Virus record (IMG/VR): IMGVR_UViG_2529293142_000021
Coordinates: 1 to 41,055 of that record
From: a virus
Taxonomy: Duplodnaviria > Heunggongvirae > Uroviricota > Caudoviricetes
Strand: one strand, 5' to 3'
Length of the DNA: 41,055 nucleotides
Of the stretch, positions 3,803-39,584 are shown in pieces. The number at the start of each line of letters is the position of its first letter. The first letter of the stretch is position 1. Under the pieces are notes generated by a model that ran no database searches, was not told the origin of the DNA, and saw nothing but the letters and a program-made list of their open reading frames with translations. Made by a program: the position numbers and the translations under genes.

Positions 3803-3916
3803 CGCGGGCTTACATATTTTTGCTGGCATTCCTGCTGGTGGAGCATAAGCGCATAAAATCTAAACGTTTTTACGCCATTATTTTTTTGCTGGAGGGGCTT
3901 TTTAGGTGTGCTGAGA

Positions 3917-10001: not shown

Positions 10002-10265
10002 CAATAATCACCCACCGGGGCTATATTCACCGAACGCCAGCAAAATCTGGCGTCGGGATTGGTCTCCCGGATATCTACTCAACGCATACCGCGTTAAGCG
10101 GTTTTTTATGCGTAAAGCACGGCTACACCCGCGAGTTATGGTGGGCTGTGTGAGGGCTTCTTAGGAAGCGCCGGGTTTGAGTAGCCGGTAAGACCAACCT
10201 TGCACAGTTCACCACCAGTCGATTGGTCTCGACGGTGGTGATGGTTAACCCACCGAGGTGACGCT

Positions 10266-14563: not shown

Positions 14564-15240
14564 AATTAGAATCACTCCCAAAATTTTACGCACCGAAATC
14601 GCCAAATCTCGGCGCAACAGCGCCCGCCACCGGCGGCGACCGCATGACGATTACTGACGTAATGACGGCTCAGGGGTTCGTTCAGTCAAAAACGCCGCTG
14701 GGGTTCGCGTTATTTCTCGCGAAAGCAGGCATTCAGACGCCTGAGCCAGCGATTGAACTGCTGGCAAAAATCGCGTGGGAACTGGCACCGGCGTGCCGCG
14801 CTGTTAACGTGCTGCCAGGCAACCAGCGCGCTGCCGTGTGTGACGTGCTGGCAACGATGGCCTACCAGGACTACTCCCGCAGCGCCGCCAGCGTGCGCCC
14901 GTGTGACTGCTGCGCGGGTGACGGGTTTATAACTGCTGAGGTGTTTACAATGAAAATGGCAGGCGTGGTACATCGGCAGGTACGAGAGATTGAGCGCATA
15001 TTGTGCGCTAATTGTAAGGGGAAGCGAGTAATTAGCAATTCGTGCCGTTGCCACGGTAAGGGGAGGGTGTTGGATGCCTCTGGCGAGGTCCTTTTGTGGA
15101 AAGAGTGCGACCGATGTAGGGGGCGAGGATACTCTCGTTTGAAATTTTCCGCCGTACTGGTTGCGTTGCAGCGGGTGTGGCCGGAGCTAAAAAAACCACT
15201 GCTTACAATGAAGTGCAGCCATTTTTTGAAATACTGGTGA
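14560..15240 (+). CDS. late antiterminator Q-like
   Basis: Cys-rich C-terminus (CANCKGK...CRCHGKG...CDRCRGRG), last gene before the late promoter/lysis region. ORF track start is TTG at 14560; real start may be the ATG at 14644. Confidence 0.65.
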   Translation: MKLESLPKFYAPKSPNLGATAPATGGDRMTITDVMTAQGFVQSKTPLGFALFLAKAGIQTPEPAIELLAKIAWELAPACRAVNVLPGNQRAAVCDVLATMAYQDYSRSAASVRPCDCCAGDGFITAEVFTMKMAGVVHRQVREIERILCANCKGKRVISNSCRCHGKGRVLDASGEVLLWKECDRCRGRGYSRLKFSAVLVALQRVWPELKKPLLTMKCSHFLKYW

Positions 15241-21126: not shown

Positions 21127-22665
21127 ATGGGTATTTTCAGCAGATTAACCACCGCGATCGCCCCCGTTACGTCGTTAAAACGAGCGCGGGCGCGCATTCA
21201 ACTGGACGCCATCAGGGCGTATGAGGCGGCTAAACCGTCACGTACACGAGCGACGAAACGCGAAACGCGCAGCGCAGACAATGCGGTTTTTGCCGCTGGT
21301 GTATCTCTGAGAGAGCAGGCGCGCTGGCTGGATGAAAACCACGACCTGGCGATCGGTGTGCTGGATAAACTGGAGGAACGCATTGTTGGCCCTCACGGCA
21401 TTCAGATTGAGCCGCAGCCGCTGACGCTGGCCGGAGACGTGCACGAGGATTTTGCAGCGCTGCTGGCGTCACGGTTCGCTAAATGGGCTGAAAACCCGGA
21501 CGTAACAGGAATGTTTACGCTGGCTGAGGCTGAGCGAATTTTACTGCGTTCGGCGTTGCGCGACGGCGAGGTGTTTATTCAGTTGCTGCGCGGTGCTGTC
21601 CCGGATCTGAAATACGACACGCCGGAACAATTCGCGCTCGAGCTACTCGAGGCCGATTTTGTGCCTATGTGGCCGTCTGGTGCCGACGGTTCAAACCGGA
21701 TTATTCAGGGTATTACGGTAAATCGCTGGGGCTGTCCTGTGGGTTACTGTGTTTATAAAAATCACCCTGGTGCAGGGTTCTCGACAGATACGCGCCAGAT
21801 CCCCGCAGAAAATATGCTGCACCTGGCTGTCCGTAAACGCCTGCACCAGGTGCGCGGCGTGTCGTTATTTCACGGCGTCATGTCGCGCCTGGGAGATTTG
21901 AAATCATATGAGGACGCCGAGCGCGTCGCGGCCCGCGTATCAGCAATGCTGGGTTTTTATATCAAACGTGGTGACGCGTCGGTGTACGGCGATGACGCCG
22001 ACTGGACGTCGCCAGATAACAGCTATCGGGATTTTGAGATGGCCCCCGGCATGATTTATGACCGGCTGGCACCGGGCGAGGAACTGCAAATGTTGAGCAG
22101 CGATCGCCCGAATCCTAATTTGATGGATTTTCGCAACGGGCAATTGCGTGCGCTGGCTGCTGGCGTGAGAACCGGTTATTCGTCAATTGCTCGCGACTAC
22201 AATGGCACCTACTCCGCGCAGCGCCAGGAATTGATTGAGGCGGGAGACGGTTACGCAGTAATGCAAAACTGGTTTATCTCCCGCGTAGTCCGCCCTGTAT
22301 ACCGGGAATGGCTGAAAATGTTTTTGTTATCCGGCGTCGAAGTGCCAGCTGACGTGGATCCGGAATCGCTGTTTGATGCCGTCTACATGGGGCCGGTTCT
22401 CCCCTGGATTGACCCGCAAAAAGAGAGCGAGGCATGGAAAGCTCAGATCCGTGGCGGAGCAGCTACGGAGGCCGAGTGGATACGAGCGCGCGGGCGGTCC
22501 CCACTGGCGGTCAAACTGCAACGCCGCCGCGAAATTAAATTTAATAAAACCGCTGGTCTGGTATTCGACACAGATCCGGCAAACGATAACGGGAGTCAGA
22601 GTAATGACGCAAAAAATGACGCTGGCACCGCGAGCCAGCGCCCCGGCGAGAACCGGGGCGGGTGA
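21127..22665 (+). CDS. portal protein, lambda gpB family
   Basis: 512-aa ORF after terminase and W-like gene; size and position fit a lambda-family portal. Confidence 0.8.
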   Translation: MGIFSRLTTAIAPVTSLKRARARIQLDAIRAYEAAKPSRTRATKRETRSADNAVFAAGVSLREQARWLDENHDLAIGVLDKLEERIVGPHGIQIEPQPLTLAGDVHEDFAALLASRFAKWAENPDVTGMFTLAEAERILLRSALRDGEVFIQLLRGAVPDLKYDTPEQFALELLEADFVPMWPSGADGSNRIIQGITVNRWGCPVGYCVYKNHPGAGFSTDTRQIPAENMLHLAVRKRLHQVRGVSLFHGVMSRLGDLKSYEDAERVAARVSAMLGFYIKRGDASVYGDDADWTSPDNSYRDFEMAPGMIYDRLAPGEELQMLSSDRPNPNLMDFRNGQLRALAAGVRTGYSSIARDYNGTYSAQRQELIEAGDGYAVMQNWFISRVVRPVYREWLKMFLLSGVEVPADVDPESLFDAVYMGPVLPWIDPQKESEAWKAQIRGGAATEAEWIRARGRSPLAVKLQRRREIKFNKTAGLVFDTDPANDNGSQSNDAKNDAGTASQRPGENRGG

Positions 22666-24685
22666 CGGCTGGTACGAGGTACGCGCGGCGGCCAACGGCG
22701 CACCGGCGGAAATCCTGATTTTTGAAGAGATCGGCGCGTGGGGTATTTCCGCGCGGCGACTCATTAATGATATTGCCGACGCTGATTTATTCAGCGCACC
22801 GGCGGTGGATATTCGTATTCACTCACCGGGCGGCAGCGTGCTGGACGGGTTCGCGATTTTTAACACACTGCGCCGCCTCACTGGCGTTGTGAATATTTAT
22901 ATCGACGGCCTGGCGGCCTCGATGGCGAGCGTGATCGCAATGTTGCCCGGCGCACAGGTGCACATCCCGGAAAATGCCTGGGTAATGATTCACAACCCGT
23001 GGGGCGGTGCGTGGGGCGATGCAGCCGAACTGCGCGAATACGCCGATCTGCTTGAGCGGCACGAAAAAAATATAGTTAACGCATATGTTAACAAAACAGG
23101 CATTGATGCGGAGGAGGTTAAAACGCTCATGTCTGCCGAAACCTGGCTAACCGGCGCGGAAGCGGTGGAAAAAAGGTTTGCTGATGTACTGGTGCCGGAG
23201 GTTGAAATGGCCGCCTGCATTAACGATAACGTAACAAAGGAGTTTTCACACATGCCGCAGGCAGCACAGAAATTTTTCAAACCGCGCGCAACTGGCACGC
23301 AACCACAACCGCAACCGGCGGCCCCGCAGCCTTCGCCACAGGCAACGCAACAACCGGCAGCGGCTCAACCAGCGGCACCGCAGCCAGCTGCGCAGGACGC
23401 TGCCGCGATTGCCACGCAGGCACTCGAAATGATGGCGGCGCGCGAAACCGCGCGTAAAGCGGCGGTATCGGCTGTTTTTACTAATTTTCCGGCGTTCGCA
23501 ACCCTGCAAAACACCTGCCTGACCGATACCACCTGCACTGATGCAGTGGCGCGTCAGCGCCTGCTGGATGCCCTCGCGCAGGGGGCTGCCCCCGCTGGTG
23601 GAGCGCATATTTACGCGGGTAACGGCAATCTGGTGGGGGATTCAATCAAAAACGTGATTATGTCCCGCGCTGGTTATGAGGAGCGCGAGGGGAGCAATAA
23701 CTACAGCGGCATGACGCTGGCAGAGCTGGCGCGCGCCTCGCTGGCCGATCGCGGTATCGGTATTTCCGGTGCAGGGCGAATGGAAATGATCGGGATGGCG
23801 TTTACTCATTCATCCAGCGATTTCGGCAATATTCTCATGGACGTTGCGCATAAATCGGCGTTGGCCGGTTGGGATGAGGCGGAAGAAACTTTTGATGTCT
23901 GGACCCGAAAAGGCGAACTGACCGACTTTAAAACCGCCAATCGCGTTGGCCTCGACTCGTTCCCGGCGCTGCGCGAGGTTCGCCCTGGTGCCGAGTACAA
24001 ATACGTTACGCTGGGTGATAGCGGCGCAACCATCGCGCTGGCAACCTATGGCGAGCTATTCAGCATTGACCGCCAGGCAATCATTAACGACGACCTGTCT
24101 ATGTTGACGCGTATCCCGCACGCAATGGGGACGGCGGCAAAGGCCACGATCGGCGATCTGGTTTACGCGTTGCTGTCCAGTAATCCGAAATTTGGGGATA
24201 AACCGTTATTCCATACCGATCACGGAAACTTCATTGACTCGCCGTTATCAGCAGCAGCGCTGGCAACGGGCCGCTCAATGATGAAAAAACAGAAAAACGG
24301 CAAACGGCATCTCAATATTCGCCCGGCGTTTTTGCTCGTATCAACCGCAAACGAGTCACTCGCGGATCAGATCATCAACTCCACGAGTGTTCCTGGCGCT
24401 GATAATAACTCTGGCATTTCGAACCCAGTACGCGGCATGGCGCAGATTGTTGCTGATCCGCGCATTGACGACGCGGGCGAGAAAAACTGGTATCTGGCAG
24501 CGGCACAGGGGCGCGACACGATCGAGGTTGCGTATCTCGACGGGAACGACGCGCCGGTTATTGAATCGACCAGCGGCTTTACTGTTGACGGCGTGACAAT
24601 GAAAGTGCGCATCGATGCGGGCGTATCCCCGATGGACTATCGCGGACTGCTGAAATCAACCGGCGACGGTCGCGAGGGCGAATAA
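22604..24685 (+). CDS. prohead protease (ClpP/S49-like) fused to major capsid protein
   Basis: Start taken at MTQKMTLAP (ORF track starts at 22373 inside the portal gene). N-terminal protease-like region, Pro/Gln/Ala-rich linker (PQPQPAAPQPSPQ...), C-terminal ~370-aa capsid-like domain; no separate capsid gene follows. Confidence 0.7.
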   Translation: MTQKMTLAPRASAPARTGAGDGWYEVRAAANGAPAEILIFEEIGAWGISARRLINDIADADLFSAPAVDIRIHSPGGSVLDGFAIFNTLRRLTGVVNIYIDGLAASMASVIAMLPGAQVHIPENAWVMIHNPWGGAWGDAAELREYADLLERHEKNIVNAYVNKTGIDAEEVKTLMSAETWLTGAEAVEKRFADVLVPEVEMAACINDNVTKEFSHMPQAAQKFFKPRATGTQPQPQPAAPQPSPQATQQPAAAQPAAPQPAAQDAAAIATQALEMMAARETARKAAVSAVFTNFPAFATLQNTCLTDTTCTDAVARQRLLDALAQGAAPAGGAHIYAGNGNLVGDSIKNVIMSRAGYEEREGSNNYSGMTLAELARASLADRGIGISGAGRMEMIGMAFTHSSSDFGNILMDVAHKSALAGWDEAEETFDVWTRKGELTDFKTANRVGLDSFPALREVRPGAEYKYVTLGDSGATIALATYGELFSIDRQAIINDDLSMLTRIPHAMGTAAKATIGDLVYALLSSNPKFGDKPLFHTDHGNFIDSPLSAAALATGRSMMKKQKNGKRHLNIRPAFLLVSTANESLADQIINSTSVPGADNNSGISNPVRGMAQIVADPRIDDAGEKNWYLAAAQGRDTIEVAYLDGNDAPVIESTSGFTVDGVTMKVRIDAGVSPMDYRGLLKSTGDGREGE

Positions 24686-24724: not shown

Positions 24725-25051
24725 ATGGCAAAAAATTATATTGAGGATGGCAAAACCCTCGACTGGACAAATACCGGCGCGAACGCGGTAAATAGTGGTG
24801 ACGCGGTTGGCGTGGGGGCGGTTGTGGGTATTGCGCACGATAATATCGCCGCCAGCGCAACGGGTGTGCTGCACATGTCCGGGGTGTTTGAATTGCCAAA
24901 AACCTCCACGGATTCTTGGGCGCAGGGTGTGAAATTATATTTAGCGTCAGGGAAATTAACCACCACATCGAGCAGTAACCCCCTCGTTGGTGTTGCGTGG
25001 GCTGCCGCTGCCGCAGGTAGCGCAACAGCAGTCGTGCGCCTGGGTGGCTAA
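24725..25051 (+). CDS. hypothetical head-associated protein
   Basis: 108 aa, Gly/Ala-rich; follows the capsid gene. Confidence 0.5.
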   Translation: MAKNYIEDGKTLDWTNTGANAVNSGDAVGVGAVVGIAHDNIAASATGVLHMSGVFELPKTSTDSWAQGVKLYLASGKLTTTSSSNPLVGVAWAAAAAGSATAVVRLGG

Positions 25052-25401
25052 TGAGTTCATTTAATGAACTGATGCGCCGCGCTGATAAAACACTGGTCGA
25101 AACGTTTAATGTTGATAATGGGGTTACGTTATTTCCGGATACTCCGCAGGAAATAACCGTGCAGGGTGTATATGACGCCCCTTTTTTTGGGGTTGATATT
25201 GCTGGTGGGCGTATATCCAGTAGCGATTCGTGCATTACCCTGCATGATTACGATTGCGTTAATTTGAAAAAACGCGACACCATTAAAATTATCGGTAAAT
25301 TATGGACTATCCGGGAAATGCAACCAGATGGCACTGGATTGACTGATATTTATTTAGACCCTAAAACAACCAGTGAAAATAGCGTTTATTCGAAATATTA
25401 G
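25051..25401 (+). CDS. hypothetical head/tail-joining protein
   Basis: 116-aa ORF; stop overlaps the previous gene; position only. Confidence 0.5.
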   Translation: MSSFNELMRRADKTLVETFNVDNGVTLFPDTPQEITVQGVYDAPFFGVDIAGGRISSSDSCITLHDYDCVNLKKRDTIKIIGKLWTIREMQPDGTGLTDIYLDPKTTSENSVYSKY

Positions 25402-25434
25402 CGGGCTTGCCCGCTTTTTTTTGAGATAAATAAA

Positions 25435-25833
25435 ATGGCAAATCCACGCAGTAACGCGCAAATGTTTGACATAGACATGAGCGCATTAACAGGGTTGCGC
25501 GATGCCGTGGAGGCAACAGAGCATCAGATGATTATGGCGTATAACCGCGCCCTGAATCGCACAGCTAAACACATGCACCGTGTTTCAGTCAGTATGATTA
25601 TTGATGCCCTCGGCTTAAAAAGCAGAAAAGTCGCTAATAAACGCACACAGCAATTTATTAAACGCCGCGATTATTCAAAAGAGGGCGCGGGGGACCTTAG
25701 TTCTGTTAAATTATGGTATGGTCTGGATGATTTTAGAATACATAATTTACGTGGGACAATGCGCCAGCCGAGAACCGGGAAACAGGAACGAGATCCGGAA
25801 ACCGGGCAATTCTTGAAAAAAAGAAAACAGTAG
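25435..25833 (+). CDS. hypothetical virion protein
   Basis: 132 aa; ends just after an A7 run (25816-25822). The downstream frame is open across this run, so this and the next ORF may be one gene. Confidence 0.45.
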   Translation: MANPRSNAQMFDIDMSALTGLRDAVEATEHQMIMAYNRALNRTAKHMHRVSVSMIIDALGLKSRKVANKRTQQFIKRRDYSKEGAGDLSSVKLWYGLDDFRIHNLRGTMRQPRTGKQERDPETGQFLKKRKQ

Positions 25834-25874
25834 CGGGAGCGTCGTTTACGCCTAAATCATCCTCACTATCCGCT

Positions 25875-26117
25875 ATGGGATGGCCTGATTCATTTGTTGC
25901 GACCCGTTTTGGATATCGCAGTATATGGAAACAGGTAAACGGTGGCCGCAATATTGAGGAAATGAGGATTCCGGTGCATGAGGCGCTGGAGGATGCTATT
26001 GATGATTATATATATCAAAATATTGGTCCTGTATTTATGGCATATTATGAACAGGATTTGCGCGGACGCGTCGCTGGTAGCGTCCATGTCAACGCCAAAA
26101 CAGGTAAACGGCTATGA
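25875..26117 (+). CDS. hypothetical virion protein, possibly C-terminal part of the previous gene
   Basis: 80-aa ORF with no evident RBS; its frame is open upstream to 25746. Confidence 0.35.
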   Translation: MGWPDSFVATRFGYRSIWKQVNGGRNIEEMRIPVHEALEDAIDDYIYQNIGPVFMAYYEQDLRGRVAGSVHVNAKTGKRL

Positions 26118-28817: not shown

Positions 28818-29446
28818 ATGTGACGAGTCAAAGCATATTACCCCCGAACGCAAACGCCGCAGAGCGGGCTTTAGAGGCGGTATTATCACACGCCGGAGAT
28901 TTACCCGCAGATATTCGCATTATCAAAAACCCTGATTTATGCCCGGTTGATTTATTACCCTGGCTGGCGTGGGAATACGCGGTCACGTACTGGAATCCGG
29001 ACTGGAGCGAACAACAAAAACGCGAAATTATTAAAGCCGCCGCCTGGCAAAACAAACACCGGGGTACGCGTGGTGCCGTAGAACGAGCGTTATTAACGGT
29101 AGGATTTGAGAGCAAAATGCGGGAGTGGTTTGAAGCCACCCCGAAAGATGATCCGTACACGTTCGCAATCAAAATATATTTGCTAAAAGGCATGGGGTTA
29201 GACCTTGACTTATTCAATACCTTTATTGCTCAAATATTCGATGCGAAAAACTGCCGCTCCCTACTTAAAGAAATTAATTTCGAAACGGGCGTTGATGGTG
29301 AGTTTTTTATAGCTGGTGCACCTTATGCAAAAATAGGCGTAAATATACCGGCAGACGGCGATGGCGGTGTAAAAATTAACGGCGGCCTATATATATCAGG
29401 CTCACCAATTGTTAGTTTAAATGTGGAGATAGGGCCAAATGGCTGA
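28814..29446 (+). CDS. tail protein I-like
   Basis: GTG start; conserved LLPWLAWEYAV motif typical of P2 gpI-family proteins. Confidence 0.7.
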   Translation: MNVTSQSILPPNANAAERALEAVLSHAGDLPADIRIIKNPDLCPVDLLPWLAWEYAVTYWNPDWSEQQKREIIKAAAWQNKHRGTRGAVERALLTVGFESKMREWFEATPKDDPYTFAIKIYLLKGMGLDLDLFNTFIAQIFDAKNCRSLLKEINFETGVDGEFFIAGAPYAKIGVNIPADGDGGVKINGGLYISGSPIVSLNVEIGPNG

Positions 29447-30562
29447 AAATAAAATTTACGCTGTGTTAACTGACCGTGGCGCGCAGTTAGAAGCCGCCGC
29501 GCTGGCGTCAGGCGTTCCAGTGGTGCTGAACAAATTTGTTATCGGCGACGCGAACGGAAACGATGACGTAACACCGGATCCGGCGCGTACTGCATTAGTT
29601 CACGAGACGTATCGCGGGGATATTAAATCCGCAGAAAATAGCGGTAACCAGGTTATTTTTACGCTATACGTACCACCGGAAACTGGCGGTTATACTATCC
29701 GTGAGGTGGGAATATTAACCGATAAAGGCGAACTGTACTCAGTTGCACGTTCACCGGATATTTTAAAACCTACGGACAGTAACGGCGCACTGATTTCAAT
29801 CACGTATAAATACACCCTCGCGGTGTCCAGCACATCTACAGTTAATGTTGTGGTATACGACAACTACGTAACTCCCGAGGTAGCTGACAAAAAATATTTG
29901 CAGATAAGCAAAAATTTATCTGAAATTGCCGCTAATGGTGGTTCTGCTCAGCAGGCTGCGCGGAAAAATATTGGTATAGATGGGGACGTTGCATATAGAG
30001 ATAAGGGTAATACATTTACAACTCAAAACACCTTTAAAGACGACGTTTTTTTTGAAGACATTTTGATTTCTAAAAAACAAATAAACATAAATAAACCAGA
30101 TACCAACTTAACATTATTTTCACTTGCGGGCTGGTCAGATGTGAACGGTGATTATTTAGAAGTGTCGACGCGGGGGAAAATAATCAAAACGTTTTTTATA
30201 GATTACGCGGGGTTCACTATGATGGTCTGGTGTTACTGTGCGGCGGGCAGACGTATAAATATTGGAATGAGGGAAATCTTAAACCGGTTAAAACGATTAA
30301 CGGGAAGTCGCCAGATGCTAACGGGAACGTCGCAATAACCGTAAGCAGCTCGGGGATACAGAACGTTCAACTTGGCGCAGAGGTTGCCCACACACCGGCG
30401 GGTAATGAGGTTACGTGGGACTTTAAATGTCCGACCGGCTGTGTTCTTACTGGGATATATGTTCAGGAAACCGGCGACAGCTCAGCTGATAATATCGGCG
30501 GTGTTTATTATAAACCGATCCAAAAATACATTAATAATGTATGGACTACGATTTCCGGATGA
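29439..30562 (+). CDS. tail fiber protein, apparent frameshift
   Basis: N-terminal conserved tail-fiber region (MAENKIYAVLTDRGAQLEAA...); receptor-binding C-terminus (KTINGKSPDANGNVAIT...) continues in another frame from about 30172-30180 (G5/A4 run); split into 29439-30338 and 30230-30562. Confidence 0.7.
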
Positions 30563-30565
30563 GTT

Positions 30566-31143
30566 ATGCAAAATTTAAAATCATTTAAGCTTGTAAAACC
30601 TAAAACGAAATTACTTAAACTTAGCGAGTCTGACGGACAAAATATTTTATATCTTCAGTCCGAAGACGGCATGGATTGGTATGAATGCCAGTCACTGTAT
30701 CGCGATGACACAGTAAAAATAATGTACGACAAAGAAAACATTATTCGATCAGTTGTTGATCGCCCGGTCCCGGAGCGAGGAAATACCTATTCTGTGAGCA
30801 TGTTTTTCCCGATTGATATGAGTGTTGCGGAGGTTGAGTTGAGCACCTATCCTGCTGAGCTAACTCTCGACGGATCGTGGAAATTTGTTGACGGTGATGT
30901 ATATCAAGATGAGCAAATTGTAAATGAGCGTATTTACAAAGAAAACTCCAAAAAATTAATGAATTAGTCCGAGAGGCTCAGTCAGCAATTCTAAATTTAC
31001 AAACAGCCATAGAGATTGATATGTCATCAGATGGTGATGAGGAAAAGCTAATAGAATGGCGACGCTACCTGTGCGAGCTGAATAAAATAACAGCCACGGA
31101 TCTAAGTCAGTCCCCACTTAACACTCCTTTACGACCAGCATAA
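30566..31143 (+). CDS. tail fiber assembly chaperone, apparent frameshift
   Basis: ORF 30566-30967 ends just after an A6 run (30950-30955); the conserved Tfa-like C-terminus (...KLIEWRRYLCELNKI...) continues in another frame to the stop at 31141-31143. Confidence 0.6.
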
Positions 31144-31155
31144 ATAGGGTACCTA

Positions 31156-32667
31156 ATGAGCACTAATTTTTTACACGGTATTCGCACACTCGAATACGAC
31201 GACGGCACAAAAGAGATCAACACGGTCGATATTTCAGTTATCGGGATTGTTGGTACTGCACCGGATTCTGCCGGGGCAGCAGACGCGGAATTAATAACCG
31301 GGAGCGAGATTCTAAAAAACCGAGTTAAATTTACTGCAACAAATCAGGGTGCGCGCGGTAATTCATGGAGCGTGGAAATTATCGCGAGCGAGACAGAGGG
31401 TGGAAATTCACTGTGGCGGGATATGCCCGACGGCAGTCGGAGATTAACTATATATGTTTCTGCACCCTCTGGACTACACAGCTACACACCGGACGAAATT
31501 GTTCAGAACGTCACGATCCCAAACCCTCCCTCTGATCAGATATTTTTAACTGTCACCGCGGTGGACACAGGGTCGACCGCAGGAGCTGTGACTGCCTCAC
31601 CGTTGCAATATTTAAGCGGCGGCAGTGATGAGGCATACCCAATTAATACCCCCGCACTGATTGCTGGAAGTCCAAAAAAAGCCGCTTTATTAGGTGAACG
31701 CGGCACGTTGCCGAAAGATATTGCCGATATTTTCAATCAGGACAACGCCTTGCTTGTTGTTGTGCGAGTAAAAGATGACAAAGACGCAACAAAACAACAG
31801 CAAAATATTATCGACGGTGTCAAACAACTGGAAAAATCGAAACAGTTAACAGGAGTCACGCCGCGTATTATTATTGCACCAGATTTTAGCGCGATTGATA
31901 CAGTTGCTGCCCAGGTTGAGGCGACGGCAACTAAATTGCGTGGCGTGGGCTATATCGACTCACCGACAGCCGCAACGGCGGAGGATGTAGTGAGACGCCG
32001 CCAGAGCTATGGCGCTCGCGTTGAAATCCTGCGACCGCGCATTTTCACTACCAGCGATATAACCGGCGCATCGCGCGCATATTCGGCGACGGCAGCTGGG
32101 TTACGTGCGCGTATTGATAACGACGGTAAACACGGTTTCTGGTGGAGTAAATCAAATCAAAACATTTACGGCGTAACTGGCGTCGAACAGATTGATGATT
32201 TTATTATCGGCGAAACCAATTGCACGGCTAATCTGTTAAACGCCGAACAGGTCAGCACAATTATTCGTTACGACGGGTTCAGACACTGGGGTAACTATCT
32301 GTGCAGCCTGGATCCGCAGTGGTCGTTTGAATGCGTTCGTCGAACAGCTGACGTAATTGAGGATTCGATCGCCATCGCAATGATGAATGATTTCATCGAC
32401 CGTCCGATCGATGTTCATCTCGGCGGGGACATCATCGAAACAATTAATGCGTATATTCGCAAACTATACGAAATGGGCGCTATTAACGGTGGTCGAGCGT
32501 GGCTTGATAGTGAGCTGAATACGAAAGAAAGTTTCGCCGCCGGGAAAATTTATATTAACGTTGAATTTGCACCCAAATCACCCGCACAAACCATCACGAT
32601 TACGTACCGTATTAATAACGATTACACCGTCGATGAATTTTCTTCATTGCTGAAACAGGCCGCATAA
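31156..32667 (+). CDS. contractile tail sheath protein
   Basis: 503-aa ORF immediately upstream of the tube gene, P2 FI-like. Confidence 0.8.
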   Translation: MSTNFLHGIRTLEYDDGTKEINTVDISVIGIVGTAPDSAGAADAELITGSEILKNRVKFTATNQGARGNSWSVEIIASETEGGNSLWRDMPDGSRRLTIYVSAPSGLHSYTPDEIVQNVTIPNPPSDQIFLTVTAVDTGSTAGAVTASPLQYLSGGSDEAYPINTPALIAGSPKKAALLGERGTLPKDIADIFNQDNALLVVVRVKDDKDATKQQQNIIDGVKQLEKSKQLTGVTPRIIIAPDFSAIDTVAAQVEATATKLRGVGYIDSPTAATAEDVVRRRQSYGARVEILRPRIFTTSDITGASRAYSATAAGLRARIDNDGKHGFWWSKSNQNIYGVTGVEQIDDFIIGETNCTANLLNAEQVSTIIRYDGFRHWGNYLCSLDPQWSFECVRRTADVIEDSIAIAMMNDFIDRPIDVHLGGDIIETINAYIRKLYEMGAINGGRAWLDSELNTKESFAAGKIYINVEFAPKSPAQTITITYRINNDYTVDEFSSLLKQAA

Positions 32668-33597: not shown

Positions 33598-35225
33598 ATG
33601 GCTGCTACACAGGAATTTAAAACAAAAGTTGTATTTGGGGGCCGCATAGACCCCTCTTTTAAGCGCAGCGCCGACGAACTGGACGGCGCTATAAAGCAGA
33701 CGGGTAACACCGTTTCAACGTTAACACGTAAACAGGAGAAATTAAAAGACCAGATCAAAAAAACCGAGCTTGCGGGCAAAAGTACTAAAAGTCTGGTTCA
33801 CGAATATCAAAAAGTCGGGCGTGAAATTAATATCGTTACGAAAGATCTTGAGCAATTAAATAAACAGTTAGCAAAAAAACAGCGAATTGAAAACATTGGC
33901 AGCAAAATAAAGGGCGCTGCGAAATGGGGCGGTAGAGCTGCGCTCGGCACCGCAAAAGCCGTCGGCAGCGGCGTTAAATGGGGCGCGCTTGGCGGGATTG
34001 GGCTAATTGGTGCCGCCGGAGCTGGTGCCGCCGCAATGAATGCTGAAACCGCCGAAAAATTAGGGCTGGCCCGGTCCTACGGTGTAGGAATCGAAAAATA
34101 TGCGGCGTGGGATAACGTCGGTAAAATGGCTGGCCTCAACGGTGAAAACGTTGGTGATTTATCCGAGGAATTAACAAATAAATTGGGTGAGGTCGGCAAC
34201 GAAAAAAACCTTAACCCGATGCTGTTCCAGATCGGTCTTACCAAAAAAAGGATGCAGAGCTGGGATCGGGAAAAACAATTTAACGAGGTAATGAGTCGTC
34301 TTTCGAAAATGAAAGACGAAAAACAGGCCGCAAGTCTCGCCGACCAATTAATGGGCGGTGAGGCAAATAAAATAATGACGTATATGAGGATTACTGGCAA
34401 AACATGGGAGCAGACCATGGAAGACGCCAAAAAATCCAATTTATTAACGCAGGAGGGCGCGGAGGGAGCCGCCCGCGCGCATTTCTCATTAACTAATTTA
34501 TGGGGTTCTATTTCCTCGGGATTTGCCGACACGCTCGGGAAAATTGGTGGGAAACTGGCCCCGACATTTGACTCGATGCGCGAGGGATTTACATCATGGT
34601 TTAAAGACAATCAAGGGACTATTGTTAATACTGTAAAAGAGTGGGTGAAACCGGAGAACATGAAAAAGCTGTGGGATGGCATAGTTAATTTCGGCGAGGG
34701 CTGCGTAAAATTCGGTAAAATAATATGGGTGGTGGTAAAAAAATTAGAGTGGTTAATTCCGGACGAAAAGACCGAAGAAGAAGAAAAAGTATATAAAGAA
34801 GAATACGCAAAAGCGTATCAAGAATTCATGGACTCGGGCGGAAAATATTCACCGAACGCTGGCCTGGCTGCTGATAATGTTGCACAAGCTAAAGCAAAAG
34901 AAGCCGTCGATAATATGCGTCATCCGGAGCGTAAAAAAATGCCGAGGCGATCATGTCGCTGGCTAATCCATTTGTTGAGGCACAAAAAGCGGCGGCGGCC
35001 CCTGATTCACTGCAAAATGCAACTATAAATATGGATGCGCTAAAACAAGCCGTGGCGCAACCAGCGCCGCAACAAAATAATAAAATTGAGGTTAATATTA
35101 TGGCGGCTGGTGACCCTCAATCTATCCAGGCGGCGGCGGCGTCAGGGGTATTAGACGGAATAAGACAGGCCGCGCCATCTGGCGGTCGCGGATCAATGAT
35201 GGACAGACCAGTGGCGGCGGGGTAA
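33598..35225 (+). CDS. tail tape measure protein, apparent frameshift
   Basis: Coiled-coil N-terminus and Gly/Ala-rich segments typical of tape measure proteins; reading frame changes at an A7 run (34933-34939); split into 33598-35028 and 34953-35225. Confidence 0.7.
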
Positions 35226-39364: not shown

Positions 39365-39529
39365 CTGTTACGCCATATGGGCTGGACTGAAGCCGCAGAC
39401 CTGATTGTTAAAGGTATGGAAGGCGCAATCAATGCGAAGACCGTAACCTATGACTTCGAGCGTCTGATGGAAGGCGCTAAACTGCTGAAATGTTCAGAAT
39501 TTGGTGATGCGATCATCAAGAACATGTAA
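39365..39529 (+). pseudogene. icd: 3'-terminal fragment of isocitrate dehydrogenase gene (icdC-like)
   Basis: Translates to [53 protein letters not shown], which is the Icd C-terminus; no upstream icd sequence. Typical of e14-type integration at icd. Confidence 0.85.
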
Positions 39530-39552
39530 TCACTACATGTGTTTAATATTGC

Positions 39553-39584
39553 AACGGGCGTATAACACGCCCGTTGTTTTATTT
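39553..39584 (+). terminator. rho-independent terminator after the icd fragment
   Basis: AACGGGCG tataaca CGCCCGTT followed by a T-run. Confidence 0.6.

Follow-up and report, generated by a model that had tools for sequence, protein, structure and literature searches.

Programmed frameshifts are known in phage tail operons, including those of the tail assembly chaperones of lambda (G/GT) and P2 (E/E'). The accuracy of both pyrosequencing and ion-semiconductor sequencing drops as homopolymers grow in length (PMC5822529). In Type 1 necks the gene order is Ad1-Hc1-Ne1-Tc1 (PMC4362835), and a role in productive DNA delivery has been described for tail-completion proteins (PMC11099176). Functional data, on tail-head joining and on infectivity, have been published only for gpZ of lambda, gpS of P2 and gp16.1 of SPP1 (PMC4362835; PMC11099176).

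The window considered here, by which we mean the whole stretch of 41,055 nt of viral DNA that was analysed, contains two small neighbouring ORFs, ORF1 and ORF2, with a run of seven A residues near the end of the former (Table 1). An initial annotation had raised the possibility that the two are one gene, and this is supported by their matches to PHROG 27, by a protein alignment that continues across the junction and by identity of the joined product with a common prophage protein. We describe the evidence for a single neck gene and weigh the possible origins of the run of seven.

The prophage and its gene order

The prophage is of the E. coli myovirus type and is integrated at the 3' end of icd. 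Its host flank reads mnmA-nudJ-rluE-icd (positions 1-1867 of the window; 1-2900 of the related loci L019-L022), and the 215 nt at 39366-39580 are a diverged duplicate of the icd 3' end, with 24 substitutions and a few small indels; e14 and phage 21 are known to carry such a duplicate too. Lambda-type packaging and head genes (a DUF1441 small terminase, a GpA large terminase, the portal, a ClpP-scaffold-capsid fusion, a decoration protein and an FII-like Hc1) are combined with a P2-type contractile tail, the genes of which comprise V, W, J, I, fibre, sheath, tube, U, X and D. In Logan assemblies of several samples the icd-prophage region is found on contigs of 52.6-55.5 kb.

The recorded ORFs and the reconstructed gene

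The coordinates of the two ORFs, the position of the A7 run and the extent of the second open frame, as given in the initial annotation, all held on recomputation. The run stands in the context TTCTTG-AAAAAAA-GAAAACAGTAG, and the TAG stop of ORF1 sits 8 nt past it. Relative to ORF1, ORF2 lies in the -1 (+2) frame, which is free of stops back to position 25746; at its other end, ORF2 shares the ATGA at 26114-26117 with the next gene, its stop overlapping that gene's start. No Shine-Dalgarno-like sequence was seen on direct reading of the sequence upstream of the ATG at 25875 (CATCCTCACTATCCGCT), which bears out the earlier remark that ORF2 has no evident ribosome-binding site. This ATG is an internal Met codon, and ORF1 holds authentic codons only up to the A-run, its final residues, RKQ*, being out of frame. 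Between the A-run and the second ATG lie 17 codons at 25823-25873, outside both called ORFs, that translate as KTVAGASFTPKSSSLSA. With a run of eight A residues (A8) the reconstructed gene is 684 nt long, as against 683 nt in the recorded window.

Both ORFs match the same 199-position profile, PHROG 27 ('tail completion or Neck1 protein'), in adjacent and non-overlapping parts (E 2.3e-19 for ORF1 and 2e-07 for ORF2; Table 1). When the two are fused through A8, residues 3-221 match profile positions 3-198 in one stretch with 110 bits (E 2.1e-31), a score that exceeds the summed scores of the two halves. A database search with the fusion, the check that the initial annotation had proposed, gave 30 homologues, every one of them a single protein, and no homologue was found in the form of two separate genes. 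Twenty-eight of the homologues are 206-227 aa long; the remaining two are shorter, at 180 and 191 aa, and align with no more than 80-84% of the query. The family alignment is unbroken across the junction (consensus RDPxTGxFLKTKKGARGATFxPKG), and the translation of the inter-ORF codons aligns with the family-conserved motif K-G-A-R-G-A-T-F-x-P-K-G. Of the 19 invariant alignment columns, two (F138 and P140) fall in this inter-ORF stretch. Because the inter-ORF codons fit a conserved motif and the ORFs match adjacent parts of one profile, the arrangement is not due to chance. In Escherichia phage vB_EcoM-569R10, a 64%-identical gene in the same gene order is annotated as one CDS of 226 aa.

Residue for residue, the A8 fusion (227 aa) has the sequence of P0033, a protein common in E. 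coli prophages and listed in 199 index blocks of the contig collection; the split products WP_001382000.1 (132 aa) and WP_000539821.1 (80 aa) are confined to 3 contigs, and the intact allele is the usual one. On the evidence of profile and alignment, ORF1 and ORF2 are the two halves of one predicted neck (tail-completion) gene. Megablast of the region against the phage collection gave no match, and megablast of the gene against 5,426 complete E. coli genomes gave no gene copy, only CRISPR spacers; since the gene is absent from these genomes, close relatives were taken from the protein-indexed contig collection. A scan of genome contigs yielded a single locus, in E. whittamii.

Table 1. Positions of the features discussed in the text (nt, numbered along the window; A5, T6 and so on denote run lengths; the reference is GCA_012710875.1)
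Feature	Position	Strand	Details
ORF1 (132 aa as called), N-terminal part of the gene	25435-25833	+	ATG to TAG; PHROG 27 positions 3-110
A7 homopolymer, site of the one-base shortfall	25816-25822	+	A8 in 14/14 near-identical loci; reference A8
Inter-ORF stretch, truly coding, in frame 0 of the window	25823-25874	+	Encodes KTVAGASFTPKSSSLSA, from translation and alignment
ORF2 (80 aa as called), C-terminal part of the gene	25875-26117	+	PHROG 27 positions 122-198
Reconstructed single gene, predicted 227-aa Neck1 (Ne1)/tail-completion protein	25435-26117	+	PHROG 27; identity with P0033; single domain in AF2 model
Terminator-like hairpin AGCGGGCTTGCCCGCT with T8 tail	25400-25422	+	Between head-closure and neck genes; from scan
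Intergenic run	3817-3821	+	T5, reference T6
T-run	10102-10107	+	T6, reference T7
Run in antiterminator-family ORF	15189-15195	+	A7, reference A8; ORF of 226 aa, 246 aa in relatives
T tail of the hairpin	25415-25422	+	T8, reference T9; gap at 25414 against L009-L018
Run in tail-fibre assembly gene	30950-30955	+	A6, reference A7; truncated to 133 aa from 192 aa
Run in ORF at tape-measure position	34933-34939	+	A7, reference A8; 542 aa reduced to 476 aa
Shortfalls in L006	25414; 25815; 25182; 27047		T9 to T8; A8 to A7; T7 to T6; A5 to A4
Protospacers in the neck gene	25438-25470; 25490-25522; 26004-26036		

Predicted identity and structure of the neck protein

The gene product would belong to the Ne1/tail-completion class, together with lambda gpZ, P2 gpS, SPP1 gp16.1 and the HK97 gp10 family, a placement drawn from sequence and gene position. 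Its match covers most of the length of PHROG 27, as expected of a member of that family, and the gene lies directly after Hc1 (PHROG 82 at 25051-25401, E 6e-23), which is the position described for Ne1 in Type 1 necks (PMC4362835); its 227 aa also fall inside the range of 56-231 aa reported for Ne1 proteins. The full order is head decoration, Hc1, the neck gene, a gene of phrog_1072 (unknown function) and then the baseplate genes. The Pfam profile of lambda gpZ itself, PF06763 (Minor_tail_Z), matches residues 31-195 at profile positions 17-166 of 190 with 20.8-21.0 bits (E 3e-4), which does not reach the gathering threshold of 23.9 bits, and an E value of 0.01 or below was obtained in only one of 19 family members. 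This indicates a predicted relation to Minor_tail_Z that is distant at best and not membership of the Pfam family.

An AF2 model of the fusion (pLDDT 79.7, pTM 0.68) forms a single domain, with long N- and C-terminal helices and a beta-sheet to which both halves contribute strands. Searched against BFVD, the model aligns over its full length with single viral proteins of 188 aa (E 1.4e-07), and the weaker matches are to proteins named HK97 gp10 family and type I neck protein, a minor tail protein also being among the matches; no convincing match was found among solved structures. If it acts as gp16.1, gpZ and gpS do, the protein would take part in completing the tail at its head-proximal end, so that the tail can join the head and DNA can be delivered productively.

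Homopolymer length in the window and in other assemblies

The comparison with GCA_012710875.1 (loci L021 and L012) covers 36,122 reference bases, corresponding to positions 1-36115 of the window. There were no substitutions in the 36,122 bases and seven single-base gaps, and in all seven the window is the shorter and the gap falls in an A or T run (Table 1). Arranged by true run length, the window is short at the one 9-mer, at three of five 8-mers, two of 20 7-mers, one of 39 6-mers and none of 26,251 runs of five or less (Fisher p = 2.6e-14 for runs of at least eight against shorter runs). Four of the seven shortfalls break genes, namely the antiterminator-family gene, the neck gene, the tail-fibre assembly gene and the gene at the tape-measure position. 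The other three, among them the T tail of the terminator-like hairpin, fall in stretches without a substantial ORF, so that the pattern follows run length and shows no sign of selection.

In 14 loci from other samples (L001-L004 and L009-L018), which share 99.9-100% identity with the window over 15-21 kb, the neck gene reads TTCTTG-A8-G without exception. A7 at this position was found in the window and in two further loci, L005 and L006. The former, from the Logan assembly of run SRR057628, shows no substitutions against the window over 20.4 kb, and the two are apparently the same strain; they differ in length at three other homopolymers (15533, 23064 and 30949), with L005 having the intact A7 at 30949 and the window the intact A7 at 23064. 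Homopolymer length is therefore unstable between assemblies of apparently one strain. The latter, from DRR275265, is the only other sample with A7 and shows four homopolymer shortfalls against the A8 loci in 2.9 kb (Table 1), which marks it too as error-prone data. No paper mentioning the run or the protein accessions came up in a literature search.

Origin of the shortened run

Our favoured reading is that the missing base is a homopolymer undercall of flow-based sequencing, of the pyrosequencing or ion-semiconductor type, which the pattern of shortfalls makes very probable. In the intact gene the A8 tract would be read as AAA AAA AAG, part of a KKKK motif; its entry as A7 in the assembly would shift the frame and lead gene callers to output hypothetical proteins of 132 and 80 aa. 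The shortfall would thus have arisen in sequencing or assembly, and the organism itself most probably has no such 'frameshift'. We favour this reading because the shortfalls are directional, dependent on run length and blind to coding status and come with zero substitutions, and a directional, length-dependent pattern of this kind is hard to obtain from real mutation. The changes have the marks of flow-chemistry undercalls, being of single bases, confined to homopolymers, more frequent with run length and free of substitutions, and they resemble those of 454 pyrosequencing and Ion Torrent in the steepness of the length dependence and in the disagreement at other runs between assemblies of apparently the same strain. 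They differ in that all seven are undercalls, whereas the literature describes over- and undercalls alike. Were A7 real, a replication-slippage deletion in A8 would have inactivated the Ne1 gene, either in a decaying cryptic prophage or as a phase-variable-like off state. Homopolymers are natural hot spots of slippage, long A-runs being the most mutable sites in real DNA, and A7 is present in two assemblies probably of one strain and in one further sample; moreover, other virion-gene frameshifts are shared by lineage (the tail-fibre split in L001-L004 and the sheath splits in L014 and L018), and the tail-fibre split looks genuine, real decay occurring in this prophage family. A real A7 would nevertheless require seven independent -1 slippages, with no substitution in the 36 kb compared with GCA_012710875.1, all of them deletions, their frequency following run length and three of them outside substantial ORFs. 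The differences between L005 and the window at three homopolymers, again with zero substitutions, would be unexpected of fixed mutations if the two are one strain, and the remaining sample with A7 is visibly noisy. We consider a genuine inactivating deletion unlikely.

It is also conceivable that the frameshift is decoded, whether through programmed -1 frameshifting on the ribosome or through transcriptional slippage on the A-run, to give products of 132 and 227 aa in a set ratio on the model of the tail assembly chaperones. The sequence A7 followed by AGA, an Arg codon that E. coli uses rarely, is intrinsically slippery, and the full protein would be regained by a -1 shift; as in lambda G/GT and P2 E/E', a slippery A-rich tract lies in a tail/neck operon with a second frame open across it. 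Unlike in those systems, the frameshift is conserved in no relative and is without a stimulatory structure. One uninterrupted ORF is present in all 14 near-identical loci and in every diverged homologue, and the tract is broken up in frame in two relatives (AAA ACC AAA AAA in L007; AAA ACA AAA AAA in L008). The 0-frame heptamer, G AAA AAA as read directly, is not of the canonical form X XXY YYZ, and folding of the 78 nt downstream (25823-25900) gave no stimulatory RNA structure (MFE -15.7 kcal/mol, z-score +0.50), 141 of 200 shuffles folding at least as well. Use of recoding is not known in this gene family. Programmed frameshifting was rejected on the absence of conservation and of RNA structure, and we regard it as very improbable. 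There is likewise only a very slight probability that A7 is genuine and leaky, a little full-length neck protein being made through -1 slippage of tRNA-Lys on the A-run, with the ribosome paused at the rare AGA codon, or through stuttering of RNA polymerase; if this were true, the prophage would be otherwise intact and the homopolymer would switch virion infectivity in a leaky or reversible way. The A AAA AAG heptamer of the A8 allele was also considered as a deliberate -1 site giving a truncated product of about 141 aa, and found no support: it is missing in L007, which has C AAA AAA, and the tract is different in L008.

Consequences for annotation

If the short run is an undercall, as we favour, the 'hypothetical proteins' WP_001382000.1 and WP_000539821.1 would be fragments of one known protein, and at least three other genes of the window would be broken likewise (antiterminator-family, tail-fibre assembly and tape-measure position). 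Since these genes would be broken by undercalls, claims of a defective prophage or of recoding would rest on assembly errors. With the seven runs corrected, the prophage appears intact and is identical to one that many E. coli isolates carry; the useful outcome is a corrected annotation of the neck gene together with a warning on six other runs in the window.

Further variation in the prophage

A GC-rich hairpin followed by a T-run (25400-25422) lies inside what should be one late operon, at the point where the head genes give way to those of the neck and tail, and resembles an intrinsic terminator. Its T8 tail is T9 in relatives, which makes it a second probable undercall, 400 nt upstream of the A7 run.

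CRISPR spacers in 13 complete E. coli genomes match three protospacers inside the neck gene (Table 1), over 33 nt with 100% identity in 12 genomes and over 36 nt with 97% identity in one; in NZ_CP054353.1 the spacer array lies between ygcE and queE. When the PAM is taken to end on the first matched base, ATG precedes all three protospacers, and this fits the AWG PAM of the E. coli type I-E system.

At 22490-22492, GG is found in place of GGG in two independent assemblies (L002 at about 4147 and L004 at about 4178), joining the portal and ClpP-scaffold-capsid genes into one ORF of 1,187 aa; in the window and most relatives a 512-aa portal ORF overlaps, by about 50-60 nt and in another frame, a protease-capsid ORF of 689-695 aa. 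At 23299, within the ORF at 22373-24685, L001-L004 carry one additional 6-nt CAACCA unit, an in-frame polymorphism in repeat number that falls in the proline/glutamine-rich linker joining the ClpP-protease and capsid parts of the fusion protein.

The same four samples lack one base at 29613, in the tail-fibre gene (29439-30338), which encodes 299 aa and is cut short in them (92 aa called), followed in L004 by a 210-aa ORF; because four different samples share the loss, this frameshift looks genuine and lineage-specific. In the sheath gene (31156-32667), a run of A7 at 31674-31680 is A6 in L014 and L018, splitting the gene into 178 aa and 319 or 305 aa, so that other assemblies of the prophage carry their own homopolymer frameshifts at different runs.
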